From Vampirovibrio chlorellavorus (GTDB lineage Bacteria; Cyanobacteriota; Vampirovibrionia; Vampirovibrionales; Vampirovibrionaceae): a stretch of DNA of 64,000 nucleotides. Of the stretch, positions 41,253-64,000 are shown piece by piece. The stretch is taken from positions 14,004 to 78,003 of the forward strand of contig NZ_QFWH01000005.1 in assembly GCF_003149375.1 (NCBI RefSeq). The letters run 5' to 3'. Numbering within the stretch: the stretch's first letter is position 1; the number at the start of each line of letters is the position of its first letter. A model generated the notes under the pieces. The model saw only the letters and a list, made by a program, of their open reading frames with translations, was not told the origin of the DNA and ran no database searches. The translations under genes were made by a program, and so were the position numbers.

Positions 41253-44200
41253 ATGTCTACAATAGGGTCTAAAACAGGCAAAGCTGGTAAAGCCGGATTT
41301 CAGTGGACGCAATTGTTGAAAGTTGCCGGTCGCTTTCCCGTGAGGGGTAAGGGATACGGGCTGGCCATGCTCATGGTGTTTTTGGGCACCACCATGGCCA
41401 TTGGCGCCTCTTTGCAATTAATGAGTGGCCCTTTATCAGCCATTGTCATGGGCAGCGCCAGCCAGAACCGTCTGGCGGCGGAAGAACTGGCCAAAAGTGG
41501 ATTGAGGGCGGTGACCGGCCAGCTTCAGGCTTACTACAATGGCGGGCAAACCATTTCCGCTGGCCTTTCTTTCAACTCTACCAGCGCCCCGGCTTACGTT
41601 CTCATGCCCCAGAGTCCCGACAGTCCGGCTGGAGCGACCCGCTCTGTTGGTTCTTACACCAGCCGGGTTAGTTATGTGAATGGCAATACCCTGCTGGTTA
41701 TGGTAACGGCCACAGTGGGGAGCAGCCAGTCCAGCGTCAGCCAGTTATTGACCCTGACGCGGGACGCTTACCCAATGGCGTTCAACAACATTACAGGTGC
41801 CACCGCCGCTTACGGCTTGCGTCGATTAACCAGCAGCGCCGCTATTACCCGGGCCATTCGGGTACGACGGGGCAGAGACAATGCCGAAACGGACATTGGC
41901 TTTTTACCCAACGGCGATTTGGACATACCCGCCTTGATGACTTTCCTGAATGATGGTCTGACCACTTACCCCAAACCGCTGGATCGGGTGACTGGCGCAG
42001 TTCGGGCTTATAGTTTAAGGAAAATCAACACTGCCTACACGGGCAACGCCATTATCGTCAGGCGCAGTAGCGATGATGCCACCACCAACATAGGCTTTTT
42101 GCCCAATGGCGATTTGGATGCGCCCGCCCTGCTGAGCTTTTGCAAGACGGATAGTTGCTTTGTAACCGCCTGGTATGACCAGAGCGGCAATGGCCGTCAC
42201 GCCACCCAGACCACCCTGGCCGCCCAACCCCGCATTGTGAATGCGGGCGCGCTGGAGATGATCAATGGCCGGGTGGCCCTTCGATTTGATGGCGTGGATG
42301 ATACCATGCTTGGAGCCACCAACAATACAGCCAACAGTTCTTTTAATCTGGTGGTGGCTCAGGTGGACGCCGGGGCCAGCATCACTTTACAAAGCAAAGC
42401 CACTAGCGGTACGTCTGGGACTGGTGGTCAAAAGTATTTGCTGAGCCCTCCCAATGCGGGGGCCGTCAACGCGGGGACAGGAATCTCGCTGGGGGAAAAT
42501 GGGGCGGGTGTCTATGAGCATGGCAATAGTTACATGCCCTGTCTTGCAAATTCGGTCATAAGCCCCAATAGCAACGATGGCCTAGTCGTATCGTACAACT
42601 ACATCAACAAGCAGCCTTTTCTCTTTATCAATAGTAAACTGGTGGATGTGGGGTTCACCTCTCCCCGGGCCGATTTAGCGCTTCCTGTCCATGTCGGCGG
42701 CCCGCCGCCAGTTCATGCGCCCTACGGCTATTTTAAAGGAGCTGTGGGGGAATGGATTCAATACCCTACTAGTTTAACCACCGCCAACCGGCAAATGCTG
42801 GAGAACGATGAAGCCCGATATTATGACCTGACTCTGGCTGATCCGGGGTATACCCCACCGCTGGTAACCGTACCCAGTGCCACCGCCGCTTACGGCTTGC
42901 GTAGATTAATTACTGACAATACCGGAACGACTGATGATGATAAAGCCATTCAGGTGCGTCGTAGCAGTGATAACACCACCCAGATTATTGGTTTTGACCC
43001 CAAAGGAAATCTGGATCTTGCAAACTTGTACAAGTTTTGCGGGGCTGGCAGTTGTTTTGTCTCCATCTGGTACGATCAAAGCGGGAACAACCGGCACCTG
43101 ACCCAGCCCACCGCGGCCAACCAGCCTCGCATTGTGAATGCCGGGGTTTTGGATACCATTAATGGGCGACCTGCCATGCGTAACATAGGAAGCCGGATTT
43201 TGCTGGGGGCGGGTGCAAATCTCATGGCGGGAACCGGTGGGTGGTGGTATTCCACTATACTGGCCGACTATGGCAGCGTTGATACTGCGAACTTCCTGGA
43301 TCGTAACCCCGCCGGCAACAGTAATCCAATTGTGGGGTTAATGAAGGCTTCCGGGAAATTTGGGATTGTGACACGCCGGAATGATGGAACCAATCAAACT
43401 GTGCGGACAGGTTCTTATACCATTCCCAGTGATGGTACGGGTCAACTGGTTTCCTGGCAACGAGTCCGAGGGGTCGAATATACCTTGTTTGTCAATGGCC
43501 TGGTGGATGCTTCCACACCGGATACCGATACGGATATTACCCCACAGGGAGTGGCTGTTCTGGGGCATAATGAGATTGGTTATTATCCCGGTGCCAGTGC
43601 GGCCATGTCAGAACTGATTATTTATAACACCAGCGTTACCACCGCCACTCGGAACCGTCTGGAAGGCAATCAAATGGCCTATTACAACATCAACAATCAG
43701 GAGCCGGACACCGGTTTTGTGACCACCTGGTACGACCAAAGCGGCAATGGTTTCAATTTTATGCAAGGCGAGCGGGAATTACAGCCGGTGATTCGGCTGG
43801 ATAGCAAAACGGGCCGCCCCACCATTCAGTTTAATGGCTTAAACAATTACATGGCCACCGGCACCACCCTCAACTTTACCGGTACCAATGCCCGGGCACT
43901 GGTGGTGGCCAGTATGGACGGTTCTACTGGTAGTGCTGGCAGGTTGTTTGGTGGTAAAAAAAATTCGGACGTCTACGATTACGCCACGCCTGAATCGGTT
44001 TCCTTCCTGCGCCGTTACGGCGCTACCAATCAACTGTTTAGTTACCGAAATAACGCCACGCTGGGCATATCTCCGGCCTTTACCCTGAACCAGCCCTTTC
44101 AGGCCACCTCTGTTTTTAATGGCAGTTCCCATCAAATTCGCGTTAATGGAGTCAATGGTACCTCTGTAGCCAGCAGCGGCTCCTTTGGCATCAACCAGCT

Positions 44201-44345
44201 CTGGCTGGGCGGCGCGCCTTTTCTCTTTCTGGGGGATCTCTGGGCCGGTGGGGTCAGCGAGATTCTTCTCTATCCCAACGCCATGAACGCGGTCCCATTG
44301 GCGCAGCTGGAGCAGGATCAGCGCAGTTACTATGGTACCCCCTGA
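41253..44345 (+). CDS. large surface protein with N-terminal hydrophobic (PilX-N-like or signal) segment and at least three LamG/concanavalin-like lectin-type repeats
   Basis: Repeated modules A(Y)GLRRL...AI.VRRSSD....IGF.P.G.LD...L..FC....CFV..WYDQSGN..H.TQ......QPRIVNAG (three or more copies). The D.SGNGNH motif is characteristic of LamG_3-type domains. Confidence 0.5.
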   Translation: MSTIGSKTGKAGKAGFQWTQLLKVAGRFPVRGKGYGLAMLMVFLGTTMAIGASLQLMSGPLSAIVMGSASQNRLAAEELAKSGLRAVTGQLQAYYNGGQTISAGLSFNSTSAPAYVLMPQSPDSPAGATRSVGSYTSRVSYVNGNTLLVMVTATVGSSQSSVSQLLTLTRDAYPMAFNNITGATAAYGLRRLTSSAAITRAIRVRRGRDNAETDIGFLPNGDLDIPALMTFLNDGLTTYPKPLDRVTGAVRAYSLRKINTAYTGNAIIVRRSSDDATTNIGFLPNGDLDAPALLSFCKTDSCFVTAWYDQSGNGRHATQTTLAAQPRIVNAGALEMINGRVALRFDGVDDTMLGATNNTANSSFNLVVAQVDAGASITLQSKATSGTSGTGGQKYLLSPPNAGAVNAGTGISLGENGAGVYEHGNSYMPCLANSVISPNSNDGLVVSYNYINKQPFLFINSKLVDVGFTSPRADLALPVHVGGPPPVHAPYGYFKGAVGEWIQYPTSLTTANRQMLENDEARYYDLTLADPGYTPPLVTVPSATAAYGLRRLITDNTGTTDDDKAIQVRRSSDNTTQIIGFDPKGNLDLANLYKFCGAGSCFVSIWYDQSGNNRHLTQPTAANQPRIVNAGVLDTINGRPAMRNIGSRILLGAGANLMAGTGGWWYSTILADYGSVDTANFLDRNPAGNSNPIVGLMKASGKFGIVTRRNDGTNQTVRTGSYTIPSDGTGQLVSWQRVRGVEYTLFVNGLVDASTPDTDTDITPQGVAVLGHNEIGYYPGASAAMSELIIYNTSVTTATRNRLEGNQMAYYNINNQEPDTGFVTTWYDQSGNGFNFMQGERELQPVIRLDSKTGRPTIQFNGLNNYMATGTTLNFTGTNARALVVASMDGSTGSAGRLFGGKKNSDVYDYATPESVSFLRRYGATNQLFSYRNNATLGISPAFTLNQPFQATSVFNGSSHQIRVNGVNGTSVASSGSFGINQLWLGGAPFLFLGDLWAGGVSEILLYPNAMNAVPLAQLEQDQRSYYGTP

Positions 44346-44404
44346 CACCTCAGGAGATCTTCACCATCAAGCCCTTTAACCGGAGTCGTGAGGACAAGCA
44401 GCCA

Positions 44405-45343
44405 ATGGACGTCGAGACGCCGCTCAAGCAGGCAAAGCCACTCAAAAGGGCTGGCAGGGGGCTTTCCCTGCTGGAAGTGCTGCTGATGATCACCCTGCTT
44501 TCGGCCACCATTCTGCCCTGCGCCCTCATGCTGACCCGAACCGGCCAAAACGCCCGCGATGTGTACTTGCAGTCCACCCGCAGCATTCTACTCAACAGCC
44601 TGCAGGACGAACAGACTGTCGATCGGAATAATTATGCCTACACGTCTGTTGGTATGAATACCGACACCAGCGAATCCGGGCAGGTCATTCCCTGGCGCTC
44701 CGTGGTGGATGTGACCAATGCCGGGGCTTCGGACAGCTTCCAGAAAACCGTGTTTTATTACCTGTACAACACCGCTGCCGATGCGGCCAATGCCCCCCGC
44801 TACAGTACCAAAGTTATCCAGACCCGAAACACCCTGCGGGTTCGTTTTGACTCTCTACAAGCAGGCTACATGGACTCCTCCGGGCAGTGGTGGAACCCCT
44901 GGGTTCTCTACAATGGGGCTGCCATGGTGCCCGGCATTAATAACGCCAGCAGCGTGTATACCAATTATCCAGCCCAGGCCATCACTAACCTGCCCTCTCA
45001 CCGGGATGCCGATATTTACCGGGGGGGCTGGTATCGTAACGGTGCATCAATCACCTATAGCGCCCCGGTTTCCACAGGGTTATACACGGTCAAGTTGTAC
45101 TTTGCTGATAATTCAGTCGCATCAACACGACTCATGGATATTGTGATGGAAGGAAAGTTAATGAATCCGGGTAATCCATATTTTGCCCCCCCATATTGTG
45201 GCAGCCAGAGTTTTTGCGCCAACGTGCAAATGTTTGACGTGATGGTAACCGATGGCAATCTGGACATCACCATATCTCCCAACAGTAACACGGTCAATGA
45301 CGATCCCTATATTCAGGCGCTTTCCATTAAGAAAAGGACTTAA
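44405..45343 (+). CDS. prepilin-type protein with C-terminal malectin-like carbohydrate-binding domain
   Basis: AGRG|LSLLEVLLMITLLSATIL prepilin cleavage motif (Glu +5). C-terminal YTVKLYFADN...RLMDIVMEGKLM...FDVMVTDGNLDITISP...DPYIQALSI resembles the malectin fold signature. Confidence 0.5.
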   Translation: MDVETPLKQAKPLKRAGRGLSLLEVLLMITLLSATILPCALMLTRTGQNARDVYLQSTRSILLNSLQDEQTVDRNNYAYTSVGMNTDTSESGQVIPWRSVVDVTNAGASDSFQKTVFYYLYNTAADAANAPRYSTKVIQTRNTLRVRFDSLQAGYMDSSGQWWNPWVLYNGAAMVPGINNASSVYTNYPAQAITNLPSHRDADIYRGGWYRNGASITYSAPVSTGLYTVKLYFADNSVASTRLMDIVMEGKLMNPGNPYFAPPYCGSQSFCANVQMFDVMVTDGNLDITISPNSNTVNDDPYIQALSIKKRT

Positions 45344-46992: not shown

Positions 46993-48480
46993 TTAACGCC
47001 AGCCCCCTCCCAGCGCGCGATACAGATCCACTTTGGAGCCGATTAAATTCATTTTCAGCTCCACCAGTTCCTTTTCGGCATTGAGTTTTTCTTCTTGTGT
47101 CAGCAACACTTCCACATAATCGGCCTTTGCGTATTGAAATAAATTATTGGCAATAGTGACCGAGTCATCCAGTAAGCGCACTTCTCTTTGTTTTGTCTCG
47201 TAGCTTTGTTGTATGTTCTTGATGTTTAACATTTGATTCAGCACTTCGGTATAAGCCTGTAGCAGGGTTTGCTCGTAGTTCAGCACCACCTGTGTTTGAT
47301 AGGAGTCCGCAATGGCGATTCGGGCGATGATGGCCTTTCTGTTGATAACAGGAGCCGTTAAATCCCCCATTAAATTGTAGACCAGGGATTTTGGATTGAA
47401 TAGCAATGCGGAGCCAAACGCTGAAAAGCCAGACTTGGCGTTAATACTCAGGCTGGGATACAAATTGGCCTGGACACTTTTTAGATCCAGTTTCGCCGCC
47501 TTGATGGCAAATTCGGCCTGACGAATATCGGGCCTGTTTTCTAACAGTTGCGTGGGAACACCGACCTGTAATTCGTCAACCTGCATGGTCATTAATTTTT
47601 CGGAGTTTCTGGGAATGGGGGCACCATCATACAAGCCCGATAAAAACTTGAGGCGATTCTTTTTTTCAACGATCTTTTGACTGATTTCAAACCGTTGGCT
47701 TTTGGTTTTCAGCAACTGTGCTTCAAACCGGTTCACTGCCAGGTTATTGGCTTTGGCATATTCCTTCAGCAACTTCATTTTAAGAAAGGCTTTTTCCTGA
47801 ATTTGAATGTTTGCATCCACTATCTTCAAGGAATTATCCAGGGCCATCAATTCATAATAACAGCGGGCGATTTCAGCGACCAATCGTGAGATAAGATAGT
47901 TCCGGCCTTCGTATTGGGCCATTAAACGCATTCTGGCCGCGTCTTTGGCGTTCTGTAACTTTTTCCATATATCCACTTCCCAGGTCATGTTGGGGCCTAT
48001 GTTCAAACCCAGATTGCGGGAATTCAGATCGTTCCTGTCAATAATTTTGTCTAGCACCCCATCCCGTGTGTTTTTTGACACAGCATAGTTTTCAATGCCC
48101 ATCCCCAGGCCCACTTTGGGCAAGTATTCGGCTTGTTTCTCCTTCACCTCATTCCGGGCAATCTCGATATCCTGCAAAAAGATATTGAATTCCTGGTTGT
48201 TTGACAGGGCTGTTTCGATGAGACGAATCAGGTAGGGATCGGAGAAAAATTCCCGCCAGCTGATATGAGCGGCGTTCTCCACTCCTACACTCTCAAAGCC
48301 GTCCGGGTTCTGGGAATCGCTGGACTGACTGTAGCGATACTTGTCAGGAACGTTAAATTTGGGCTCTTTTTGAACCAGATTGAGGGGGTGAAACCAGGAT
48401 CGCGCAAGCACAGGCTCTTGCGTGTTCAATACAAGGAGCGTTAGTGCCGATAGAAAGCCAATTATTTTTATGAACTTCAT
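46993..48480 (-). CDS. efflux transporter outer membrane factor (TolC/NodT family)
   Basis: 495 aa, signal peptide. Two internal repeats of coiled-coil/beta-barrel OMF architecture. C-terminal LYRALGGGW typical of NodT-type OMFs. Confidence 0.75.
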   Translation of the reverse strand: MKFIKIIGFLSALTLLVLNTQEPVLARSWFHPLNLVQKEPKFNVPDKYRYSQSSDSQNPDGFESVGVENAAHISWREFFSDPYLIRLIETALSNNQEFNIFLQDIEIARNEVKEKQAEYLPKVGLGMGIENYAVSKNTRDGVLDKIIDRNDLNSRNLGLNIGPNMTWEVDIWKKLQNAKDAARMRLMAQYEGRNYLISRLVAEIARCYYELMALDNSLKIVDANIQIQEKAFLKMKLLKEYAKANNLAVNRFEAQLLKTKSQRFEISQKIVEKKNRLKFLSGLYDGAPIPRNSEKLMTMQVDELQVGVPTQLLENRPDIRQAEFAIKAAKLDLKSVQANLYPSLSINAKSGFSAFGSALLFNPKSLVYNLMGDLTAPVINRKAIIARIAIADSYQTQVVLNYEQTLLQAYTEVLNQMLNIKNIQQSYETKQREVRLLDDSVTIANNLFQYAKADYVEVLLTQEEKLNAEKELVELKMNLIGSKVDLYRALGGGWR

Positions 48481-48520
48481 AGGGTTTTCCTGATTTTTCT
48501 GGTTCCGTGTTTTCTACTGT

Positions 48521-51500
48521 TTAATCCGGTTTGCTGATTTGCCGGGAGGTTCTCAGTTTGCGAATGAGTCGCCTGAACATCAGCCTGAGTATTTTGAACT
48601 GTGTCTTGTTCCTGGCTTTTTTGCCGACGATTGCTTCTGTCAAGGTGGTCTGCGTTTCATCCTGCAGTAGCTTTTTTCCGTCGACCAGGGTTGCAAACGC
48701 AAAATACAATCCGGGGATGATGACGATGCCAATCAGGGTCCCGGAAATCATGCCGCCCATGGCGGAAGAGCCCAGCGTTCTGTTTCCCACCGCGCCCGCG
48801 CCGTGCGACAAGACCAGTGGCAGGAGTCCGGCTATAAAGGCGAAGGAGGTCATCAAGATCGGCCTGAAACGCATTTTTGCCCCTTCAAGCGCAGCCTCCA
48901 GTATGGATAAGCCTTCATTGCGCTTTTGCACCGCAAACTCGACAATCAACACCGCGTTTTTACCCAAAAGCCCGATCAGCGTGATGATCGCGATCTGTGC
49001 GTAGACATCGTTTGCCAACCCCATGAGCTTGAGCATGAAGTAAGACCCAAAAATCCCGATGGGCAGGGATAATAGCACGGCCAGGGGTAATACAAAGCTC
49101 TCGTACTGAGCCGCCAAGACCAAGTAAACAAATAGCACCACGATCAGGGAGATAACGGCAAATTCATTTCCTCGCTTGGCCTGATCGTATGAGAGATCCT
49201 CCCAGGCAATATCGTAGCCTCTGGGGAGGGTTTTCAGCGCCACGTCTTTTATGGCGTCAATGGCATCGCCCGAGGTGAAGTTATTGCCGGGAAAGCCCCG
49301 AATGACCGCCGAGTTATAGAGGTTATAGCGGGTAATTTCATTGGCCCCCTGTGTTTTCTCAGTGGTCATAAAGGAGCTGTATGGAACCATTTCGCCGTGA
49401 TCGTTCTTGACAAAATAATTGTTCAGGTCATCCAGATTCCTTCTGTACTCCGGTGCGGCCTGGGTGAACACTTTGAAAAAGCGTCCAAACCGGATAAAGC
49501 CCTGCTCGTAGGAACCGCTGATGAGAATATTCAAATTTTCCATGGCGTTGTTGATGGATACGCCCTTTTGCATGGCCAATTGGTTATCTATTTTGATTTT
49601 GTATTGCGGGTATGTGGCGTTGTAAAAAGTAAACAGGCCTCGAATTTCTTTTCGTTTTTCCAGATTGCGCATAAACTCCTGAGTGACTTTTTCAAGTTCC
49701 TGGTAATTGGTTTCACCCGATTTGTCGAGAAGGCGCAAGGAAAACCCGCCAGAGGTACCGAAGCCGGGAATGGCAGGTGGTTCAAAAAATTCCACCTTGG
49801 CGCCCAGGGCCTCGGATTTTTTCTCCAGCGCCTCAATGATGTCATGCACACTCTCTTTTCTTTCTTCCCAGCTTTTCAGGTTGATCAGGCAGGTGCCGGC
49901 GTTGGAGCCCCTACCTTCCGTCATAATCTCATAGCCCACCATTGAGGTGACGGATTCGACCCCCTCTACTTTTTCGGAAATTTTTTGTAACTGACTCACG
50001 ACCTGGTTGGTATATTCCAGGGTCGAGCCGGGGGGCGTTTGCACAATCGCGTAAATGGTGCCTTGATCTTCACTGGGTACAAAGCCTGAGGAGACGATTT
50101 TGTTAAAAATAAAAATCCCGATTGCAAATAATACGATAACCCCGAAGGTGATGACACGCTTGGTGACAATTTTATCCAGAAGCCACATGTAGCGTTGCGT
50201 CAATTTATCGAAAAGCACATTGAATTGATCGATCCCGCGTTTCAATAAATTCCTGGATTTTTTGTGGCTGGCGTGTTCGCCGTGACTGTCATGATTGCCG
50301 TGGCTGCCATGATTTCTGAGAACCATCGCGCACAGTACAGGCGTCAGGGTGAGCGCCACTAACCCCGAAATGATAATGGAACTGGCCATGGTAATGGAAA
50401 ATTGCCTGTAAAATACGCCCACAGGGCCACTCATAAAGGCAATCGGACAGAATACGGAAATCATAACCAGGGTGATGGCAATAATGGCTCCCCCCAGTTC
50501 CTTCATGGCTTTTTGGGTGGCAGCGTAGGGAGAGAGTGTGGGATCTTCCTCCATTTTACTGTGGACGGCTTCTACCACCACAATGGCATCGTCTACCACA
50601 ATCCCGATTGCCAGAACCACCGCAAACAGGGTAATCAGGTTGATGGACATTCCAAATAGAAGCAGCACGAAAAAGGCGCCAATCAGGGAAATGGGTACCG
50701 CGATAATGGGAATGATGGTAGATCGCCAATCCCCCAGGAATAAAAATACCACCAGGGTTACCAAAATAAACGCGTCTCTGATGGTATCCACTACCTGCTC
50801 AATTGAAGCGTCCAGAAATTTGGAAACATCGTAACTGTATTTGACTTTGATGCCGTCTGGAAAATCTTTTTCAAGCTCTTTGATCTTTTCCTTGATATTT
50901 TTGATGACGGCCGCCCCATTGCTGTTGGGTGTTTGCTTCAGTATGAGCGAGGCGGACGGCTTGCCATCCAGCGTGTTATAGATGTCATAAAATTCGCTTC
51001 CCAGTTCAACTTCGGCGACATCCTTGAGCTTGACCATTTCTCCAAACTCGGAACTTTTGATAATGATGTTCTCGTATTGCTTGGGCTCATTGTAGCGACC
51101 CTCATAGTCAAGAACGTACTCCGTTGCCTGGGCTTTTTTCCCGGAACTTTGACCCAACCTGCCGGGACGGGCAATAATACTTTGTTCGCTAATCGCCTTG
51201 ACCACTTCTTCCGGAGAGATGCTGTAAGCCCTCAACCTGTCTGGCTTTAACCAAATTCTCATGGAGTAGGTCCGGGTACCCAGCAAGCTGGCGTTGGCCA
51301 CCCCGTTTATGCGTTGAATTTCGGGAATCAGCTTGGTGTAGGCGTAATTAAAAAGGTATTTTTGATCGATATTTTTGGATTCAGAATATAAATCGATGTA
51401 CATCAACATGGAGGGTTGGAGCGGTAATAAGATGACACCCTCTCGTTGCACCAACTCGGGCAGAGAGGTCATGACCCTATCCACCCGTGTTTTCACGTTG

Positions 51501-51814
51501 ACCACGGCCTGGTTTGAATCGGTTCCGGGTTCAAAAACCAGTCTCAGCGTCGCCTCACCGGCACTGGTCGCGTCGGAGGCCATATAACGCATGCCCGGAA
51601 CGCCGTTAATGGCCGCCTCTAGCGGAATTAAGGTGGATTTTGTCAGGACATCCGCACTGGCGCCCGGATAGGCAATGAAGACGTTGACCACTGTGGGCGC
51701 GATTTGTGGAAACTGTGAGATAGGCAGTTGCTGAATGGAAAGACAGCCCAAAAATACGATAAATATTGAGATGACCAGACCTAAAACCGGTCTTTTAAGT
51801 ATATTCTGAAACAT
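48521..51814 (-). CDS. RND efflux pump permease (AcrB/HAE1-like) with His-rich insertion in the TM6-TM7 cytoplasmic loop
   Basis: 1097 aa, 12 TM with two large periplasmic loops. N-terminal MFQNILKRPV...FIVFLG...QLPISQFPQIAPTVVNV matches AcrB. Insert VLRNHGSHGNHDSHGEHASH at about 50255..50330. Confidence 0.85.
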   Translation of the reverse strand: MFQNILKRPVLGLVISIFIVFLGCLSIQQLPISQFPQIAPTVVNVFIAYPGASADVLTKSTLIPLEAAINGVPGMRYMASDATSAGEATLRLVFEPGTDSNQAVVNVKTRVDRVMTSLPELVQREGVILLPLQPSMLMYIDLYSESKNIDQKYLFNYAYTKLIPEIQRINGVANASLLGTRTYSMRIWLKPDRLRAYSISPEEVVKAISEQSIIARPGRLGQSSGKKAQATEYVLDYEGRYNEPKQYENIIIKSSEFGEMVKLKDVAEVELGSEFYDIYNTLDGKPSASLILKQTPNSNGAAVIKNIKEKIKELEKDFPDGIKVKYSYDVSKFLDASIEQVVDTIRDAFILVTLVVFLFLGDWRSTIIPIIAVPISLIGAFFVLLLFGMSINLITLFAVVLAIGIVVDDAIVVVEAVHSKMEEDPTLSPYAATQKAMKELGGAIIAITLVMISVFCPIAFMSGPVGVFYRQFSITMASSIIISGLVALTLTPVLCAMVLRNHGSHGNHDSHGEHASHKKSRNLLKRGIDQFNVLFDKLTQRYMWLLDKIVTKRVITFGVIVLFAIGIFIFNKIVSSGFVPSEDQGTIYAIVQTPPGSTLEYTNQVVSQLQKISEKVEGVESVTSMVGYEIMTEGRGSNAGTCLINLKSWEERKESVHDIIEALEKKSEALGAKVEFFEPPAIPGFGTSGGFSLRLLDKSGETNYQELEKVTQEFMRNLEKRKEIRGLFTFYNATYPQYKIKIDNQLAMQKGVSINNAMENLNILISGSYEQGFIRFGRFFKVFTQAAPEYRRNLDDLNNYFVKNDHGEMVPYSSFMTTEKTQGANEITRYNLYNSAVIRGFPGNNFTSGDAIDAIKDVALKTLPRGYDIAWEDLSYDQAKRGNEFAVISLIVVLFVYLVLAAQYESFVLPLAVLLSLPIGIFGSYFMLKLMGLANDVYAQIAIITLIGLLGKNAVLIVEFAVQKRNEGLSILEAALEGAKMRFRPILMTSFAFIAGLLPLVLSHGAGAVGNRTLGSSAMGGMISGTLIGIVIIPGLYFAFATLVDGKKLLQDETQTTLTEAIVGKKARNKTQFKILRLMFRRLIRKLRTSRQISKPD

Positions 51815-51831
51815 CGTGATAAAAATCTCAG

Positions 51832-52926
51832 TTAATTGGCATACAATTCCAGGTGATTGATGACAGCTTTGGGGTCTATCATCCTGTATTTAATTTTGTC
51901 CCCTTTGTAGATTTTGCTTTGTCTTTCAAGCAAGAACATTTCGTCCGGGCTAAGACCCGACTTGAGAATGAAGATATTGGGGGCCTCCTCGGCCACTTCA
52001 ATCTCGCGCTCGTGGAGGACGCCATTTTTATCGACTACCAGTACAAATTTTTTGTCTAATATTTCGAATGTTGATTTCTGGGGAATAATGACAGCGTGTT
52101 TGATTAACTTTGGCCACAGGATAGTCCCGGTTTCTCCGTGACGCAAGAGTGTACGGGGATTGTTGAAACTCGCTCGAAATGCAATGTTTCCCGATGTATT
52201 GTTAAAATCGGACTCAATCGTTTCGATCGTTCCGGCTTCAGGGTACAGGTCATTGTTGGCCAGCTTCAATTGAACGGTCTGGGCAATATTGTTCCGTCTG
52301 CGTTTCATATAGTCCAGGTAACGGGCTTCAGGAACGTTGAAATACACCCACATTCTGTGGTTATCACTCAACGTGGTCAGCAGATCTCCCTCATCCAGCA
52401 AACTGCCAATCCGGATGTCTCCGAACCTGCCAATCAACCCACTGAAAGGGGCCCGAATTTCAGTAAAACCCAGATGCGTCTGGGCCATCTCCAGTTCCGC
52501 CGAGGCTTTGGCTAATTTGGCGGCAGACATGGCCGCTTCACTTTTGGAAATAATATCTTTTTCCACCAATGCCTTGTTGTTCTTTAGCTCAATTTCAGCC
52601 AGATCCACTTCAGCCTCGGATTTATCAACATCGGCTTTGTAAACATTCGGCTTGATCTGAAAGAGCAGTTGTCCCTGCCGAACCAGTTGTCCTTCGTCTA
52701 CGAATTTTTTTTGCAAATACCCCTTTTCCAGCGAGCGCAGCTCAATATGTTGAATGGCTCGAATCTGGCAAACATATTCGTCATTCAGCTTCATATCCTT
52801 TACCAGAGGCTTGCTCACCTGATAGGTGTATTCTGGCTCCTTGCTTTCATGAGGCGCCTGACAGCCCGTTAAAAACAACGTGATTAGGGCACAGTGAATA
52901 AAAATGGATTTCTTGATCAGGTTCAT
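51832..52926 (-). CDS. RND efflux periplasmic adaptor (membrane fusion protein, HlyD/AcrA family), lipoprotein
   Basis: Lipobox LTGCQ. Coiled-coil hairpin plus lipoyl/beta-barrel domains typical of membrane fusion proteins. First gene of the MFP-RND-OMF operon. Confidence 0.8.
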   Translation of the reverse strand: MNLIKKSIFIHCALITLFLTGCQAPHESKEPEYTYQVSKPLVKDMKLNDEYVCQIRAIQHIELRSLEKGYLQKKFVDEGQLVRQGQLLFQIKPNVYKADVDKSEAEVDLAEIELKNNKALVEKDIISKSEAAMSAAKLAKASAELEMAQTHLGFTEIRAPFSGLIGRFGDIRIGSLLDEGDLLTTLSDNHRMWVYFNVPEARYLDYMKRRRNNIAQTVQLKLANNDLYPEAGTIETIESDFNNTSGNIAFRASFNNPRTLLRHGETGTILWPKLIKHAVIIPQKSTFEILDKKFVLVVDKNGVLHEREIEVAEEAPNIFILKSGLSPDEMFLLERQSKIYKGDKIKYRMIDPKAVINHLELYAN

Positions 52927-53131
52927 GCCAGTTGTTCCTTGTTTCGGTATTTAAATCAGATTTGCAAGGTGAGCCTGCGCCCTGCGAGATTTTTTGTGCA
53001 AATAGACTGGATTGCCTGAGTGTAAAAACGCAGGCCAAAGCAAAGAGCCGGTGTCTTTGCATAGTGACCGCTCTATATCTTTAATTGACTGAGGATAAAT
53101 ATCGAGAGTTTAGAACTGATAAGAATTGAGA

Positions 53132-53770
53132 TTATTTTACCTGGGGTCGCTTAAGTTTAACGTCGTTATTTTGAGAGACTTCCATTTGCTCACCTTGAAG
53201 TTCATCCATCATTTCCCGCAGGGTCGATGCGTTGAGCCCGCCCATGGAAAAGAAGAACATCAGGATTAAATTGCCGGTTAGCAAGGTTTTTTGGAGATGG
53301 TGCAACCGATCCAGCAAACGCCGTTTATCATAGATTTTAAAGAAATCCACCCGAGCGACTTCATCAATATTTTTTTTGGCCTTGCGGATATCCCGCTTAA
53401 TGGAGACCACTTTATTCGGATCCTTGGCCTGCTCAGCGTGTTGTGTTTCAAGCAGCGCTTCCAATTCACTGATGAACGCTTCAATTTGCCGGTAATCCGC
53501 CATGCGCTCATTCCGAAAAATATCGATTACCTTGTCATCCGGCAGATTTTCAAACCGATCGACCTGCATGACAATGGCTTCACCGCTTTCCTGCTCCACT
53601 TCGGCGGCTAGCCAGCGAACCGTCTCCACGCAGTCATCGTTGTAGGGTAAAACATGAACACCCAGCTTGGGGGAAATGGCACCCGACTTGCGTAATTTTC
53701 GCCAAATGCGAACCCTGGAGGCTGCCGTGAGATTGGAAGGCAATGAGTAGGAAAAAACGAGCCATTTCAT
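53132..53770 (-). CDS. ChrB N-terminal-domain-like protein (chromate-resistance regulator family)
   Basis: N-terminal MKWLVFSYSLPSNLTAASRVRIWRKLRKSGAISPKLGVHVLP follows the ChrB N-domain pattern (WL.L.YSLP...RV..WRKL...GA......V.VLP). Confidence 0.45.
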   Translation of the reverse strand: MKWLVFSYSLPSNLTAASRVRIWRKLRKSGAISPKLGVHVLPYNDDCVETVRWLAAEVEQESGEAIVMQVDRFENLPDDKVIDIFRNERMADYRQIEAFISELEALLETQHAEQAKDPNKVVSIKRDIRKAKKNIDEVARVDFFKIYDKRRLLDRLHHLQKTLLTGNLILMFFFSMGGLNASTLREMMDELQGEQMEVSQNNDVKLKRPQVK

Positions 53771-57696: not shown

Positions 57697-58137
57697 GTGT
57701 TGCGGTTTTATACCAGTACTTGTCCATTTCCAAGCCTGCAAATTGCTTTGCCAGAAAGGCCAGTCATTATGCTGTCCGTATTACCGTCCAACATTCCCCG
57801 CCCCTTGGCGGACTCATCGTTTCCCCGCCCCGCGAGAGGGGTTCAGCCAATGCTTGGCCCATTGTCCCGGAACGCTGCCCCATCGGGCGACGACCAGTTC
57901 ACGCGTTTGCCTGCCCCGAATGCCCGCACTAAGCCTGTGCAGTTCGGTGGTGGCGGTAAGGCTATGGCGTTCGGCACGGGCGGTCTGGCCACAGGGGTTC
58001 TTTTGTGGCCACTGAGTCTGGTGGTCGGTCTTTTCGGCTTGATTATCCATCCCTTACTGCCCATCGCCGCGCTTATGGGTGTCGCTCCCATTGGGCTATC
58101 CATCTGGGGCGCTATATCGGGCTGGAAAAGTAAATAG
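57697..58137 (+). CDS. hypothetical small membrane protein
   Basis: C-terminal Gly-rich hydrophobic helices (LATGVLLWPLSLVVGLFGLIIHPLLPIAALMGVAPIGLSIWGAISGW). Start uncertain (alternative Met at 57769). Confidence 0.3.
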   Translation: MLRFYTSTCPFPSLQIALPERPVIMLSVLPSNIPRPLADSSFPRPARGVQPMLGPLSRNAAPSGDDQFTRLPAPNARTKPVQFGGGGKAMAFGTGGLATGVLLWPLSLVVGLFGLIIHPLLPIAALMGVAPIGLSIWGAISGWKSK

Positions 58138-58316: not shown

Positions 58317-59135
58317 CTAGATCAGGAAGCTCTTGGCTCCGAATTGCTCTTTCTGGACGGCAAGATGAGGGGCTATCATGGCGTAGCTACTGGCCAAGCC
58401 TTCCAGGGTGGAGGTTTCAATGGCCAGATGGATCTTTTGGGGCAGTAGGGCCAGATGGTTCAGGAACCCGGGCATGTCAATCAGGCCTTTTTCAAAGGAA
58501 TCATGGCTATCCAGCGCTCCCCCGTTGTTGTGGGCGTGGATGTAGGCCACCTGACTCCCCAGTTCTTGCAGCCAGTCAATGGGAGAGAGTTTGGAAAAAA
58601 TATTAATGTGCCCGATATCCACGCAGGCCTTGAGATGGGGCGAGTTAATCCGGCTGAGCAGGGCGTGAATGGACTCGGGACTGTCATCAAGAAAGTTTTC
58701 AATCACAATGGTCAGGTTGGTGTCCCGAACCTCTTCCTCTAATAGCCTTTCCCAAAAGTCAGTCACCTTGTTCAGCCACATGTAAGTGGCATTGGCGGCC
58801 CTGTAAATGGGGGTCCACTGGGAGTGAAAGACCAGATAGCGCACATCCAGCGCCTTAGCCACCTCAATGGCCTGTTTGTAGCGATGCCGGGACACTTTCA
58901 GGATTTCCGGGTCCAGGCTGACCACGTTGGTGTCAAAAATAGGGCCGTGCATGGAGAGAATGCCCCGAAAATCCTTCAGCAGATGACGATAACGGAGGAT
59001 CTCCTGGTGTCGGTTGTCCAGGTTTTCCACGTGGTAAAAGGTCGGAATTTCATAGTCCAGCCCGTGAGTCAGGGCGAATTGAATTCCGGCTTCAAGCGCT
59101 GGGCCTTTGGGGGCGGCAAATATCCGTTCAATCAT
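58317..59135 (-). CDS. sugar phosphate isomerase/epimerase (xylose isomerase-like TIM barrel) family protein
   Basis: 272 aa; metal-binding-type segments (VIENF, CVDIGH, HAHNN) typical of the AP endonuclease 2 / xylose isomerase-like fold. Confidence 0.65.
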   Translation of the reverse strand: MIERIFAAPKGPALEAGIQFALTHGLDYEIPTFYHVENLDNRHQEILRYRHLLKDFRGILSMHGPIFDTNVVSLDPEILKVSRHRYKQAIEVAKALDVRYLVFHSQWTPIYRAANATYMWLNKVTDFWERLLEEEVRDTNLTIVIENFLDDSPESIHALLSRINSPHLKACVDIGHINIFSKLSPIDWLQELGSQVAYIHAHNNGGALDSHDSFEKGLIDMPGFLNHLALLPQKIHLAIETSTLEGLASSYAMIAPHLAVQKEQFGAKSFLI

Positions 59136-59523: not shown

Positions 59524-59898
59524 ATGTTGCCTGACGGGAGTTGTTGGATGGATTTGTCCAATCGTTTTTTGCCGGACTGCGTTGTGGTGGACGTGATAGA
59601 CGATAAGTTCGGCTATCCCAAGACCATGGTCTTGAAAAACCATGTCGCCAAGTTGCTTATGGAAGGTCACCGGCATGTGGTGCTAAATTTGTCACAGGTG
59701 CAGACGCTGGACAGTTTTGGTATTGCCGTTTTAATTTCCTTGCTGAAGCTCTGCCGGGAAATCAAAGGCAATTTGACCCTGTTCGGGTTGAATAAGCAAG
59801 TGTCCAATCTCATGGAAATAACCCACATGGATCGGGTGCTGGATATCTGGGAATCTGAGGCGCAGGCCATCAGTCAGGTGCGCGCAGCGCAGTCCTAG
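59524..59898 (+). CDS. STAS-domain protein (anti-sigma-factor antagonist-like)
   Basis: 124 aa. VVLNLSQVQTLDSFGIAVLISL...GNLTLFGLNKQVSNLMEITHMDRV matches the SpoIIAA/STAS fold with the conserved Ser (DSFG) phospho-site region. Confidence 0.65.
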   Translation: MLPDGSCWMDLSNRFLPDCVVVDVIDDKFGYPKTMVLKNHVAKLLMEGHRHVVLNLSQVQTLDSFGIAVLISLLKLCREIKGNLTLFGLNKQVSNLMEITHMDRVLDIWESEAQAISQVRAAQS

Positions 59899-59937
59899 TC
59901 CATAGTCTGGACCCCCTGGTCCGGGAGGTCTGGCCTT

Positions 59938-62838
59938 TTAAGGGGTCGGTTGCGCTTTAACGCCTTGGGGATAGGGGATATGCGAGCCCGGGTTTGGCCG
60001 GTTCAGTGCCGCAGGGGGTGTGAATCCGGGTGGCTGGGGCCGGTAGGGCTGAAAGGGAAAGCTCTTGGGTGGAGCCTGAGTGCTGAAGGGGCTTACCGGC
60101 GTGAAGGCTGGTACAGCACTGCTGGCCGGTTTAGACAGGGCGTTGAAAGTCGGCTGCAGGGCGGGTGATGGTTTGGGCCCTGCTGGGGCGGGAGCCGGTT
60201 TTTTGGGGTAGCCGGGCTGAGGCGCGGATTTTTTCTCCAGCACTTTCAGCAGACCATAGGAAGATCCCGCAAACACGCCCAGCGCCACACCGCCGACGGT
60301 GGCAAAGCGGCTGAAGTGGTTCATGTGTCTCAGGCCTTTCAGGAATGGCAGGGTGGTTTTGTCCCAGGCCTGGGATAGAACGGCCAGTGCTGGCAAAGTA
60401 CCCAGATAGCCAGCGTTGACAATATCCTGCGCTGTGCCTTTTTGAGCCACCAGCTTTTCCTGGTAGGGTTGCAGGACTTTGTTGTCAAAGCGACTGGCCA
60501 GCCAGCCGTAGAAGATGAAGTTAAGCCCAACCGTGGTCAGAATTTTGGGCCAGGTGCCGTTTCTCTGGATTTTATTCACCGCGGACTTGACCATGTGGCT
60601 TTGCAGGCCATCGGTGATCAGGCTTTTAATGGTCCATTCCGCGCTTTTAACCTTTTGGCCCAGCTGATTCTCAATGGTGTGCAGATTCTTTTCGTTCAGT
60701 ACTTTTTTCAGCAGGGTTTCCAGGCCCTCTTCTTTCGGGTTGGCGAGCGGGTTGCCGAAGGCATCGGTGTTGGTGAGTTGTCGAAACAGCTTGCCCCGGA
60801 TTTTTCCGGCTTTCAGGGCGAGTTGCTCTTCCGGGCTGAGCGCGGCCAGTTTGCTGTCCAGTTGGGCTTTCAGGTTCGGACAGAACGAGTCGTTCAGGTG
60901 GCTGTAATCCATATCACCGGTCAGATGCGCCCAAATGGTCTTTTTGACCTTGCCCATCACCGATTCCACGCTGTGTTGTTCCAGATCCTTGACCGCCCCG
61001 GTGGCGCTGGACATTTTGGGTAAATGCTGACCCAAATCCTGGCTTAAATGCCTGATTTCGCCATCATCCAGCCAGTGGCGCAAGCCCATATCCTGCAAGC
61101 GGGCTTCCAGCAGTTTCCATTTCTCCACGGGCTGACCTTTGAGGGGGCCGTCGGTGTAGCGGGGCAAGTGTTCATAAGGTAATTTGTTGACGTCCTCAAA
61201 CGCGGTTTTTACTTTCTTCTTGACCTGCAGTAGCAAATCGGCGCCCAAATGCTGCCAAAGGCTGTCCAGCATCATATTTTTGATCTGGAGGCTTTTGGAA
61301 ATGGTTTCAAACCAGCTTTCAAAATGTCCCAGCTTTTTGTTCAGCTGGTTCATGGAAATATATCCCCGGGGCTTGTGGGGCCGCTCGCCTGGATTGGTCA
61401 GGAAGGCTTGCAACCGGCCTTTTTCATTTCGGAATTCATCTTCCCAGTTGCGCCATACTTTTTCGTTTTCTTTCGCCCATTCTTCCTGAAACTTCAGCTT
61501 TTGATCCTGATTGCCCTGCTGCTTTTTGCTTTTATGGATGCCCTGCAGGATGGTTTGCAGCGTCAGGTTATCCCGTTTGATGCGATCCTGAATGGCGTTA
61601 TGATCCAGCCCTTCTTCCTGCATCCGTTTCAAAATATCCTGGTTGGTGGAGGCATGCCAAAAGTCGGTCAGGGACTCTTTTTTGTAGAGAAACTGCAAGT
61701 TCTCGATTTCCTGAATGCCCTTGGTAAAGGCTTTTTCCCGCTGATCCAGAGGCAGCCTGCGCACTTTTTCAGCCAGATTGCGTAAATCGGCTTTTCCTTT
61801 GTGCTGCAGGCCATGGAGCTTGTTGATATAGAAGCGCATGCGATCGGACACAATGTCGGACATTTCATCCACGGCGCTGAAGGGATTCTTTGGGGCCAGG
61901 GCTTCCGGCAACTGGAAGTTTCGAGGTTCAATGAGGCCTTTGGGCTTCAGGACTTCCGCTTTGGGTTTTAAAAAGTTGCTTTCCAGATAGTGCTGAAAGT
62001 TCAGGTTGCGATCCAGGTGGTTGATGAGAATACCCAACTGCTCCGTTTTGAGTAATTGAACGGATTGGTGGATGTGGGTTTTCAGTGTTTGTTTGTCCGG
62101 GTGACCGGCGGAGAGCTTTTGAAAGAGCGTTTGCGTTTCCGCCTTGGCCAGGGCTTTGTTGTCAATTTTGGCGATGCGTTCCAAATCAGCCCGATGGTTA
62201 CCCAGTTTGGCCGTTTCCGCAATAAACGCTTCCACCTGAGAGCCATTCTCCGGGTTGAGCGGATGGGTGATGAGCTGGCGCAGGGTGTCATAGAGCGGAG
62301 AATTCTTGTCCTGGAGCGCCTTGATTTCATTCAGGGCTTCTTCCTGCAGTACTTGAGGCACCAGCTCGGCGCTGTTGCGGATCAGGGTGCCCATCATCTT
62401 TTCACGCAGCGCTTCGGGCAGCTCGGCATAGTTCCAGGCCCGTGGGTATAACGCGGTGGAATTCAGCAGTTGGGCCGTTTCAGTTCGCGCGGCGGCGACC
62501 CCATTCCGGGCGGGGGCCGTCTCATTCCGGATTTCCACCGTGTCAAAGGTGGGGATGACCCGCTTCTGCCCCAGCTTGGTGTTCAGGGCATGCAGCTCCA
62601 GGGCGTTGGTCAGCAGGGGCATGGTGTAAAACCGCTCGGTTCCCCGGAAGCCCATTTCGGTCATATAGGTGCAGGCCATGACCATGCCGAAGTCCCGGAA
62701 CCAATAGTCCCCTTTGCGCTCGGGGTTGGTTTCATGAACCCGATAGGCACCCCGGCCCGCGTAGCCCAGGTTGACTGACTGGGCCAGCGCCCGTTGGGCC
62801 CAGGGATTCAGCTGCATAGCCATGGGAAGCATACCCAT
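59938..62838 (-). CDS. large hypothetical membrane-anchored protein (helical, K/E/Q-rich, C-terminal TM helices and Pro-rich tail)
   Basis: 966 aa. Long predicted-helical charged region, two hydrophobic segments near residues 790-860, C-terminal low-complexity P/A/Q tail. N-terminal region resembles the upstream 363-aa protein. Confidence 0.45.
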   Translation of the reverse strand: MGMLPMAMQLNPWAQRALAQSVNLGYAGRGAYRVHETNPERKGDYWFRDFGMVMACTYMTEMGFRGTERFYTMPLLTNALELHALNTKLGQKRVIPTFDTVEIRNETAPARNGVAAARTETAQLLNSTALYPRAWNYAELPEALREKMMGTLIRNSAELVPQVLQEEALNEIKALQDKNSPLYDTLRQLITHPLNPENGSQVEAFIAETAKLGNHRADLERIAKIDNKALAKAETQTLFQKLSAGHPDKQTLKTHIHQSVQLLKTEQLGILINHLDRNLNFQHYLESNFLKPKAEVLKPKGLIEPRNFQLPEALAPKNPFSAVDEMSDIVSDRMRFYINKLHGLQHKGKADLRNLAEKVRRLPLDQREKAFTKGIQEIENLQFLYKKESLTDFWHASTNQDILKRMQEEGLDHNAIQDRIKRDNLTLQTILQGIHKSKKQQGNQDQKLKFQEEWAKENEKVWRNWEDEFRNEKGRLQAFLTNPGERPHKPRGYISMNQLNKKLGHFESWFETISKSLQIKNMMLDSLWQHLGADLLLQVKKKVKTAFEDVNKLPYEHLPRYTDGPLKGQPVEKWKLLEARLQDMGLRHWLDDGEIRHLSQDLGQHLPKMSSATGAVKDLEQHSVESVMGKVKKTIWAHLTGDMDYSHLNDSFCPNLKAQLDSKLAALSPEEQLALKAGKIRGKLFRQLTNTDAFGNPLANPKEEGLETLLKKVLNEKNLHTIENQLGQKVKSAEWTIKSLITDGLQSHMVKSAVNKIQRNGTWPKILTTVGLNFIFYGWLASRFDNKVLQPYQEKLVAQKGTAQDIVNAGYLGTLPALAVLSQAWDKTTLPFLKGLRHMNHFSRFATVGGVALGVFAGSSYGLLKVLEKKSAPQPGYPKKPAPAPAGPKPSPALQPTFNALSKPASSAVPAFTPVSPFSTQAPPKSFPFQPYRPQPPGFTPPAALNRPNPGSHIPYPQGVKAQPTP

Positions 62839-63929
62839 CAGTGGAGCCCTCCGGGAAGCGTGGCGCCGGGAAGGGCGGATGGGTTGCTATGGCGGCGGTG
62901 ACTCACATAACTCTGAAAAAATTGGATGGGGGGAGTGGTGATGCTACTTGGGTTGGAGGGAAGGGAACTGTTGGTGAAGGGACTCTGAGGGGGGTGGGTT
63001 TTGGCCAGGATGGGGTTTTTGTGAATTTGATCGGGAGGAAGGTTCTTGTTGCCTTCAAAGTCCTTGTCTAACGGAGAGATGACTTTGTTGACGATATCCA
63101 TGGCCACCCCGCCGATGAAATAAATGGTGGCTCCAACGACAAGCCCTGTAGATAAAAGGTTCCAGCCATTTATTCGTTTGAAAAACCGGGGGATCTCTTT
63201 TTCGATGGCCTCTTCCATCGGGGTCAGGATGTGGGGAAGGGGCTTGTTGTCGGCAATGGCCTTGGCGTTTTCCTGTATCTTGTGATGAAGGTCTCGATAT
63301 CGCTTTTTAATGAGATCGGTTTTATTGGCGTCCAGCCAGGAGGACGCCCACAGCGCTTTTTTACCCTTTCGGGCGCCTTTCAGCTCGTCATTGCTGATTT
63401 TGATACCGGCATCTTGCAGGATATCCAGGTAATCCACGTCCATGCGCCCGTGATCCAGGAATTTTTGCAGCCCGGACATTTCCGAGGAGAGATACCCTTT
63501 CTGCCGCATAAACGGGTTGAAGAGCAGGGTATTCACCCCGTAATTCTCACTTTTGGCCAGGTTTTGCAGCAGCAGGGTCATCATCCAGATTACCGCGTTT
63601 CGGCCATTGGTTTCCCAGGGGTGCTTGTCGTCCTTGATGGCGTAATAGCCTTGCAGCAAGTAAACGCCCAACAGGGTTTGCACCCGACTGGCCATATCCT
63701 CCAGGGATAAACCGCCCCAGCGGATGTCGTTGTTAAACAGCTTGCCCGCCAACAAACGATTTTTGACGAAGCTGGCAAAACGGTACCCTCGAACCACCGC
63801 CTCCTGCGGTACCTCTGACCTGGCCACTTTGGCAAGGCCAGTGCCTCCAGATCCAAAGCGCAGGGGGATAGAATTCCCTTTGGACCATCTGGACGGCAAG
63901 GTAATACTGTTTAGCGTTGTCGTTACCAT
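62838..63929 (-). CDS. hypothetical membrane-anchored protein (paralogous N-domain to the 59938..62838 product, TM helix, Pro/Ser-rich tail)
   Basis: 363 aa. GYYAIKDDKHPWETNGRNAVIWMMTLL resembles GYAGRGAYRVHETNPERKGDYWFRDFGMVMACTY of the downstream protein. TM (LLSTGLVVGATIYFIGGVAMDIV), then P/S-rich tail. Stop overlaps the downstream start (ATGA at 62838). Confidence 0.4.
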   Translation of the reverse strand: MVTTTLNSITLPSRWSKGNSIPLRFGSGGTGLAKVARSEVPQEAVVRGYRFASFVKNRLLAGKLFNNDIRWGGLSLEDMASRVQTLLGVYLLQGYYAIKDDKHPWETNGRNAVIWMMTLLLQNLAKSENYGVNTLLFNPFMRQKGYLSSEMSGLQKFLDHGRMDVDYLDILQDAGIKISNDELKGARKGKKALWASSWLDANKTDLIKKRYRDLHHKIQENAKAIADNKPLPHILTPMEEAIEKEIPRFFKRINGWNLLSTGLVVGATIYFIGGVAMDIVNKVISPLDKDFEGNKNLPPDQIHKNPILAKTHPPQSPFTNSSLPSNPSSITTPPIQFFQSYVSHRRHSNPSALPGATLPGGLH

Positions 63930-64000
63930 AACACCCTAGTAGCTAACGAGCTTGATATTGCTATCAATAACGGTGAAGGAGGAAAGTTGCTCGTTTGTAC

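Follow-up and report, generated by a model that had tools for sequence, protein, structure and literature searches.

Overlapping genes of Vampirovibrio chlorellavorus encode a conserved pair of putative membrane-anchored proteins without detectable relatives

TonB and TolA combine a membrane anchor with a long Pro-rich extended segment and are encoded together with a multi-transmembrane (TM) partner; their TM helix is N-terminal and a folded domain (TonB_C, TolA_III) makes up their C-terminal end. In the bitopic cytoskeleton adaptors RodZ, ZipA and ZipN (Ftn2), one TM helix and a Pro-rich linker accompany a cytoplasmic domain, and their logic is a housekeeping one of the envelope or divisome. 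Large cytoplasmic helical domains followed by a C-terminal TM helix and, beyond the membrane, a short to medium tail are found in eukaryotic tail-anchored proteins, i.e. SNARE/syntaxin, KASH and the plant PDV1/PDV2. The ExbB/ExbD and MotA/MotB stators associate a three-TM subunit carrying a cytoplasmic helical domain with a one-TM subunit, encoded by overlapping genes, and the vinculin, α-catenin and talin arrays, built of four- or five-helix bundles, also count among the closest known systems. Here we analyze a pair of overlapping genes, named A and B, that recalls all of these systems. The pair lies in a stretch of 64,000 nucleotides of V. chlorellavorus (contig NZ_QFWH01000005.1, positions 14,004 to 78,003), hereafter the window.

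Gene A, the smaller partner (62838..63929, minus strand), encodes 363 residues and gene B, the larger one (59938..62838, minus strand), encodes 966 residues; these boundaries, already given by an earlier interpretation of the bare DNA letters (the sequence-only reading), are exact in the six-frame list of open reading frames (ORFs). We found 28 homologues of A, with 37–93% identity, and 19 of B, one of them a V. chlorellavorus "hypothetical protein" with 100% identity and the 18 others with 27–81% identity. Contigs of one and the same length carry many of the A and B homologues. The family alignments testify to strong purifying selection at defined places in both proteins. Since homologues of both are conserved, A and B are, by this comparative measure, real genes and not chance ORFs.

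An exhaustive hidden Markov model (HMM) search with the A profile across 1.84 billion cluster representatives (E ≤ 1e-3) retrieved 98 clusters, 57 of these at E ≤ 1e-30, with lengths of 140–681 residues, and a third, word-indexed homologue search with the broad A profile A3 was saturated, adding only one new protein. The few A clusters with a source name come from "Ca. Melainabacteria bacterium", "Vampirovibrionales bacterium" and unclassified "Cyanobacteria bacterium" metagenome-assembled genomes (MAGs), and when GTDB was scanned with the two peptides of highest conservation, 8 loci emerged, each belonging to Vampirovibrio, Vampirovibrionales or Melainabacteria. To count the pairing we used 17 fetched loci with a complete A 3' end, covering close and distant members: in 17/17 of them, as in the window, a B-like gene directly follows A on the same strand, nearly always overlapping it. 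The sequence-only reading had been made to depend on conservation of the pair in related genomes, and the pair is indeed kept in related and distant genomes alike, including "Ca. Melainabacteria" and "Cyanobacteria bacterium" MAGs in which the identity drops to only 20–30% and the flanks are different. The proteins encoded downstream of A in loci L016, L017 and L019–L022 match the B HMM with E values of 1.6e-55 to 2.6e-9, at the N- and C-terminal modules, and the C-terminal membrane domain of B aligns with that of distant B-like proteins with hhalign probabilities of 97.4% and 98.8%. The B-like protein of L018 is the most divergent, yet it keeps the invariant residues in the alignment. The length of B ranges from 430 to 976 residues and that of A from about 310 to 680, all the variation being in the helical middles and the tails. 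Judging from these searches, the two families are apparently restricted to the melainabacterial lineage, with about 98 A clusters, each apparently with a B partner. The V. chlorellavorus genome paper (PMC4451040) contains no discussion of either gene.

The overlap of the two genes had been described as a four-nucleotide ATGA. The overlap is real and base 62838 is common to both genes, but the junction is TGATG, with an overlap of 1 nt. On the minus strand it reads ...CTC CAC TGATG GGT ATG..., where the TGA of A and the ATG of B have one A (62838) in common, and this stop/start junction (62836..62840, minus strand) is the putative site of translational coupling. In L001–L007 the end of A and the start of B fall at one common coordinate, while the junction types among the loci comprise TGATG, TAATG, ATGA, overlaps of 8–11 nt and one gap of 3 nt. 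A GGAGG resembling a Shine-Dalgarno (SD) sequence is present 6–15 nt before the B start, within the last codons of A. The SD sequence and the abutting start thus remain constant although the junction type varies, which gives good grounds to assume that the translational coupling is conserved and that the A:B stoichiometry is therefore fixed. In the window, the predicted SD sequence of gene B is a GGAGGG (62847..62852, minus strand) contained in the Gly-Gly codons of A, 8 nt before the overlapped ATG. Because of this sequence, and because the B homologues keep an M-[SG]-x-L-P N-terminus, the longer B with its start at 62838 is probably the true one. The V. chlorellavorus database copy of B (P0001, 961 residues) begins 5 codons downstream, at MAMQLNP (62823..62838 of the window, minus strand). 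A promoter and terminator scan of positions 59000–64000 gave the same result as shuffled sequences.

At its N-terminus, protein A has a conserved module; a charged, helical middle part, a single TM helix toward the C-terminus and a Pro-rich tail follow. Its conserved blocks are GGLSLED..GRLQT, K.HPWETNGRN, KSENYGVN, RMD.DY, KKALWASSWLD.NK and IP.FFKRIN, followed by the TM helix and then IVNKVISPLDKDF. The AlphaFold2 (AF2) models of both proteins were built from the family alignments; that of A, with a predicted local distance difference test score (pLDDT) of 59, is confident only for residues 130–270 and shows an all-helical protein with a long TM helix (residues 237–284) and a disordered tail. 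Residues ~84–125 (63555..63680, minus strand) form, by conservation, column hydrophobicity and AF2, two conserved helices of hydrophobic character and, between them, the invariant loop K-HPWETNGRN, in which, among 81 diverse members, Glu106 is invariant and Thr107, Arg110 and Asn111 are conserved in at least 90%. AF2 places helices at residues 76–99 and 104–124 around this loop, with low confidence. These residues look like a candidate membrane-embedded hairpin or a buried or partner-binding interface. The TM helix (residues ~257–282; 63084..63161, minus strand), delineated by hydropathy, conservation and charge, coincides with a strong hydrophobic segment at residues 257–281 with a Kyte-Doolittle (KD) value of 1.86 and precedes a (V/A)(S/A)PLDxDF motif; in this region Gly273 is invariant and Arg252 and Asp288 are at least 90% conserved in the same 81 members. 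The tail (residues 283–363; 62841..63083, minus strand) is variable in length and sequence, has 17% Pro and is predicted to be disordered and periplasmic from its composition and the AF2 model. One A-family member, P0078 (MBY0451161.1), carries the NCBI label "YppG family protein", almost certainly an artefact caused by the low complexity of its Pro/Gln-rich tail.

In protein B, the family alignment delimits conserved blocks at both ends, N-terminal ...RKGDYWFRDFGMVMACTYMTE... and C-terminal NGTWPK...LNFIFYGWLASRFDNKVLQPYQEKLVA.KGTSQDIV. The former belongs to an Arg-rich module with the consensus QRxLxQSxNxSYxxRGxYRV..RKGDYWFRDFGMVMACTYMTE (residues ~15–82; 62593..62796, minus strand), identified by conservation, which is probably not a TM helix because it is not consistently hydrophobic in the distant homologues. 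In 27 sequences, distant ones included, the invariant residues are Arg29, Arg33, Arg41, Asp44, Tyr45, Arg65 and Pro74, then Asp785, Gln790 and Pro791. The variable middle (residues ~83–740; 60619..62592, minus strand) is modeled as helix bundles with a β-hairpin insert at residues 92–129, and the alignment gaps show that short B homologues are devoid of ~200–500 residues of it. This middle had been read as a long, charged, coiled-coil-like helical region: it is indeed almost all helical, with 24–33% charged residues in the mid-protein, but a coiled-coil or intermediate-filament-like rod calls for long uninterrupted heptads, and the AF2 monomer contains no long coiled coil, its longest helices being of ~41 residues, broken by loops and packed in bundles. 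In this monomer model B looks more like a succession of bundles than like a rod. It has a mean pLDDT of 70.4 and a predicted TM-score (pTM) of 0.66, with an N-terminal helical module, the packed bundles, C-terminal helices at residues 762–800, 804–823 and 841–869 and a disordered tail at residues 873–966.

The C-terminal helices of B constitute a putative three-helix membrane domain (residues ~762–869; 60232..60555, minus strand), supported by KD peaks, conservation and hhalign, with Trp-Pro at its start and S..D(N)..(L/I)QP after helix 1. Its hydrophobic segments, at residues 766–784, 806–824 and 842–868, are moderate (KD 1.1–1.4), and Trp763, Pro764 and Gly778 are at least 90% conserved in the 27 sequences. 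One TM segment had been expected at each C-terminus; A has a single strong one, but B has three hydrophobic helices. The last part of B (residues 870–966; 59941..60231, minus strand) is a tail with 30% Pro and scattered Pro/aromatic dipeptides, predicted to be disordered and periplasmic on the basis of composition and AF2. The sequence-only reading was right about Pro-rich low-complexity tails, both being predicted as disordered (pLDDT < 50). Vampirovibrio-like B tails contain a recurrent Phe-Gln-Pro/Ser-Tyr/Phe ("FQPY") and Pro-Phe dipeptides, in 6/23 against 0.3 expected from shuffles. As a motif common to both tails, FQ[PS][YF] was rejected, since its enrichment is confined to B tails of close relatives and does not extend to the tails of A.

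No N-terminal signal-like hydrophobic segment was detected in the sequence or hydropathy profile of A or B. Over the 81 A sequences, the 15 residues before the TM helix contain on average 3.31 Lys/Arg and 0.58 Asp/Glu (net +2.7), and the 15 residues after it 2.16 Lys/Arg and 2.81 Asp/Glu (net −0.65). By the positive-inside rule, A would adopt an N-in/C-out topology with its bulk in the cytoplasm and its tail in the periplasm. In B, the net charge is +1.65 before TM1, about 0 after TM1 and positive in the TM2–TM3 loop, which fits an N-in topology with the tail out, less securely than in A. In both proteins the conserved positions cluster in the N-terminal modules, the TM helices and the residues flanking these helices, and the middles are variable. 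Such an organization agrees with the previous description of a coupled pair of membrane-anchored proteins, whose Pro-rich tails are plausibly periplasmic.

That neither protein belongs to a known family had been proposed from the letters and was borne out by searches: with Pfam-A and NCBIfam there is no match for A, and the best scores of B, 12 and 13.5 bits, stay below the respective cut-offs of 25 and 50. Over 81 A-family and 27 B-family members, Pfam gives scattered single matches only, with a best E value of 7.8e-4 and none recurrent. Neither PHROGs nor the anti-phage defence collection PADLOC matches A or B at E ≤ 1. Sequence and profile searches of the PDB with the family alignments A1, A2, A3 and A5 return only compositional matches of the helical middle, at E ≥ 0.004 (a designed coiled coil, PDCD10 and syntaxin-1A). 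Homology to a lytic transglycosylase, a phage tail protein or any other characterized family, which could have explained the pair, was looked for and no confident match emerged: the Pfam SLT/transglycosylase models do not match, PHROGs is negative, and the PDB matches to XkdM/tube protein (E 0.37–0.41 over 34 residues) are noise.

The comparison with the systems cited above leads to the same point. Unlike TonB and TolA, A and B have their TM helices at the C-terminus, tails that are disordered to the end and a large domain predicted to be cytoplasmic, and they match no Pfam family; of the TonB/TolA attributes only the Pro-rich segment is present, and membership was rejected. A and B differ from RodZ, ZipA and ZipN by the absence of an HTH, DnaJ or ZipA_C domain and of any sequence or fold similarity, and by forming what appears to be a two-subunit system with a three-TM partner. 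The SNARE, KASH and PDV systems are eukaryotic and evolutionarily unrelated; the profile matches to syntaxin-1A are non-significant (E 0.14–0.56) and the conserved C-terminal Gly of A is explained by the SD sequence. A and B also lack a family match to the ExbB/ExbD and MotA/MotB stators, a TM aspartate in the one-TM subunit and a periplasmic peptidoglycan-binding or TonB-like domain, and their topology is another one; neither the MotA_ExbB domain nor the conserved Asp in the single TM of the partner, which characterize MotA/ExbB/TolQ and MotB/ExbD/TolR, is found. No defining feature of any family considered was recovered in A or B, which are new protein families with no detectable relative by sequence or fold. 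Many lineage-specific orphans exist, and lineage-specific adaptors are common within the cyanobacterial lineage. A membrane-anchored scaffold with Pro-rich tails would itself be of an already familiar general kind.

The reading that we place foremost, while giving it somewhat less than an even chance, is that A and B are unrelated subunits of one inner-membrane heterocomplex, produced in fixed proportion from a coupled operon and serving as a housekeeping scaffold or tether of the envelope, a conserved trait of Melainabacteria (Vampirovibrionia). Both proteins would be made in the cytoplasm without a signal peptide from the translationally coupled two-gene operon, anchored in the inner membrane by their C-terminal helices, one in A and three in B, and assembled there 1:1 or in another fixed ratio. 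The helical-bundle domains would then form a cytoplasmic platform, the Pro-rich disordered tails would extend into the periplasm, and the TM-proximal motifs, PLDxDF in A and S..D....QP in B, would be exposed at the periplasmic face. The A–B interface and working core probably involve the HPWETNGRN hairpin, the TM helix and PLDxDF of A together with the Arg-rich N-terminus, TM1 and SxxDxxxxQP of B, and the variable helical middles could act as a spacer or scaffold. TonB/TolA, RodZ, ZipA and ZipN suggest by analogy that the pair would most likely serve as an envelope scaffold or tether connecting the cytoplasmic platform with the periplasm or cell wall, for instance in cell shape, division or envelope integrity. 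We infer the physical interaction of A with B, their topology and this function, and the operon and complex part of the proposal is much more secure than the functional one. Several points weigh against it. The three helices of B are only moderately hydrophobic (KD 1.1–1.4; pLDDT 63–73) and the start of its tail is also positively charged, which makes the B topology less secure; the neighbours give no consistent functional pointer, Peptidase_M23, SpoIID, BacA and RsmH/YggT occurring once each; and the scaffold or tether is argued from architecture, a like form of which could serve a channel or a signalling device.

In a rival reading, the TM helix of A and the three of B build a four-helix membrane bundle that is itself the functional core, as a channel, a transporter or an ion-driven energiser like ExbB/ExbD-TonB or MotA/MotB, with the cytoplasmic helices regulating it and the Pro-rich tails transmitting force or signal across the periplasm; we regard it as unlikely. 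V. chlorellavorus lives as an epibiotic predator on Chlorella and builds an attachment pad whose composition is unknown (PMC4451040). A Vampirovibrio device specific for predation, e.g. a part of this pad or a prey-contact structure, would agree with that life style and with the lineage restriction and extended tails of A and B. It is nevertheless very improbable, as the pair is located amid housekeeping genes and not near type IV secretion system (T4SS), flagellar or pilus operons, both proteins are predicted to lie mostly in the cytoplasm and have no secretion signal, and the distant MAGs mentioned above keep the pair despite low identity and different flanks.

Two further readings concern the origin of the proteins and the end of A. 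The sequence-only reading took A and B for paralogues with a recognisable common N-terminal domain, which would make them products of a tandem duplication, with the N-domain and a TM-plus-tail module in common, forming a pseudo-symmetric heterodimer. Their layout is indeed alike, i.e. a conserved N-terminal element (polar/hydrophobic), a variable helical middle, C-terminal TM helices and a Pro-rich tail, and an acidic/Pro motif follows the TM region in both, NKVISPLDKDF in A and DNKVLQPYQEKL in B. BLASTP of A against B gives no N-terminal alignment, its best segment being in the TM region (30% identity, E 0.088), and hhalign of the family profiles yields a weak C-terminal alignment (E 0.005) whose register is unlike that of BLASTP. 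The hhalign probability is only 6.8%, and 3.5% with the 81-member A alignment. The two N-terminal strings put forward earlier have a local score of 16 against a shuffle mean of 17.9, with 72% of the shuffles as high, and residues 60–135 of A against 10–90 of B score 22 against a shuffle mean of 23.6; "ETN" is invariant in A, whereas Glu36 and Asn38 vary in B, and the number of TM helices is 1 versus 3. The claimed similarity is thus at chance level by BLASTP, two profile–profile comparisons and a shuffle test. Paralogy seems to us distinctly doubtful, the common layout being best viewed as analogy or, at most, undetectable ancient homology, and on these comparisons A and B are two unrelated families. 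As for the end of A, a Gly-Gly pair is found 2–4 residues from the C-terminus in 38/81 A proteins, against a background of 3% per 8-residue window, and a Gly at positions −6 to −2 in 68/81, a frequency that could speak for a protein-level signal, be it a ubiquitin- or Pup-like conjugation end, a processing site or a KASH/PDV-like docking peptide ending the periplasmic tail. However, its position follows the downstream start and not any protein feature, and no other residue of the A tail is conserved. Both in the window and at 8 other junctions of the Vampirovibrio type, the Gly-Gly codons are GGAGG(G) or GGGGG(G), 8–12 nt before the B start codon, with less exact fits in L020 (GGGAGG, read as Met-Gly-Gly) and L015 (GGAGGT, 17 nt upstream), and the junctions without Gly-Gly carry an SD-like purine run (AAGGAG, AGGAG, GGGAGG) in another frame, giving EG, RG or KG endings. 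The Gly-Gly "motif" is, by the codon evidence, the SD sequence of gene B imprinted on the C-terminus of A, an RNA-level sign of the coupling, and a protein-level signal is extremely improbable. A ubiquitin-like or Pup-like protein would be expected to keep its Gly-Gly irrespective of the nucleotide context, which is not the case here. Motif hunters may be cautioned that a conserved C-terminal "GG" can be the imprint of the ribosome-binding site of the next gene.

Cyanobacteria have their closest non-photosynthetic relatives in the Melainabacteria, whose cell biology is, to our knowledge, essentially unstudied. Melainabacteria possess SepF and lack FtsA (PMC8178401). The A–B pair, being always paired, coupled across the lineage and without detectable relatives, is a candidate lineage-specific core envelope component. 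A bolder form of the scaffold proposal, which we consider improbable, sees the pair as a lineage-defining trans-envelope linker of non-photosynthetic cyanobacteria: a tail-anchored heteromer whose cytoplasmic platform would be coupled, mechanically or spatially, through the two Pro-rich tails to the peptidoglycan or outer membrane. If true, this would be a bacterial analogue of LINC- or PDV-type bridges, made of two folds without known relatives, and might take the place of divisome or shape adaptors missing from Melainabacteria. Nothing yet indicates an unusual mechanism, and if the pair is an ordinary scaffold the gain would be mainly in annotation. The definition of the A and B families would supply annotators with two new models and experimentalists with a tractable target, made worthwhile by the strict pairing across a deep and poorly known sister lineage of cyanobacteria.

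The gene order in Vampirovibrionales is PFOR, LexA, RlmN, a small ORF, A, B, STAS (convergent) and TIM barrel, often with a gene of the ShlB/Omp85 type near the pair. LexA-RlmN is kept upstream in the distant loci L018 and L020, and STAS-TIM downstream in L022. The other flanks include SmpB/YbaB (L019), ribosomal-protein/SecE/NusG genes and Peptidase_M23 (L017), SpoIID (L020), and BacA and RsmH/YggT (L022). The cell-wall or division-type neighbours, at L017:8395-9621, L020:13455-15281, and L022:5911-6777 and 13672-14619, occur in single loci and were each seen once; they are suggestive and may be due to chance. In this survey of the fetched loci no gene except B is universally linked to A. Because the flanks comprise PFOR, LexA, RlmN, SmpB, YbaB and ribosomal proteins, and PHROGs and PADLOC are negative, the pair sits in the housekeeping chromosome and not in an island or mobile element.

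The convergent gene next to B (59524..59898, plus strand) does encode a STAS-domain protein, as previously noted (Pfam STAS, 1.4e-14; NCBIfam anti-sigma-factor antagonist, 3.2e-15). It adjoins the pair in L001–L007, is near it in L022, with one 119-residue ORF between, and is found 3.3 kb upstream in L017; within 8 kb it is absent in L016 and L018–L021. We therefore do not count it as part of the A–B system, since it is not universally linked and lies on the opposite strand, and regard it as context only. A STAS partner-switching module was also rejected, as the called flank genes of the loci include no HATPase_c or PP2C-type Pfam family. The STAS ORF encodes 124 residues from its first ATG and its orthologues have 114–116; starting from the second Met (MDLSNRF...) gives 116 residues, so that the real start is probably 24 nt downstream.

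The gene following STAS encodes a xylose-isomerase-like TIM barrel (58317..59135, minus strand; Pfam). Between it and a PAS histidine kinase gene, a 146-residue ORF (57697..58137, plus strand) combines a stretch rich in Gly with a C-terminal half of very high hydrophobicity; at the same position, L006 has a gene of comparable size, and the ORF has no Pfam or NCBIfam match. The rest of the window is ordinary chromosome, with a resistance-nodulation-division (RND) efflux operon, glycoside hydrolases and a P-type ATPase. The RND operon (46993..53770, minus strand) is complete, comprising an OEP outer-membrane factor, an AcrB-family pump (1097 residues, 1.2e-288) and an HlyD-type adaptor, and is adjoined by a ChrB_N-domain protein. 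A carbohydrate-active cluster (34062..36620 and 41253..45343, plus strand) encodes a GH35 β-galactosidase, a 1030-residue arabinofuranosidase-B-like catalytic-domain protein and a malectin-domain protein, which fits the prey-wall-degrading repertoire described for V. chlorellavorus.

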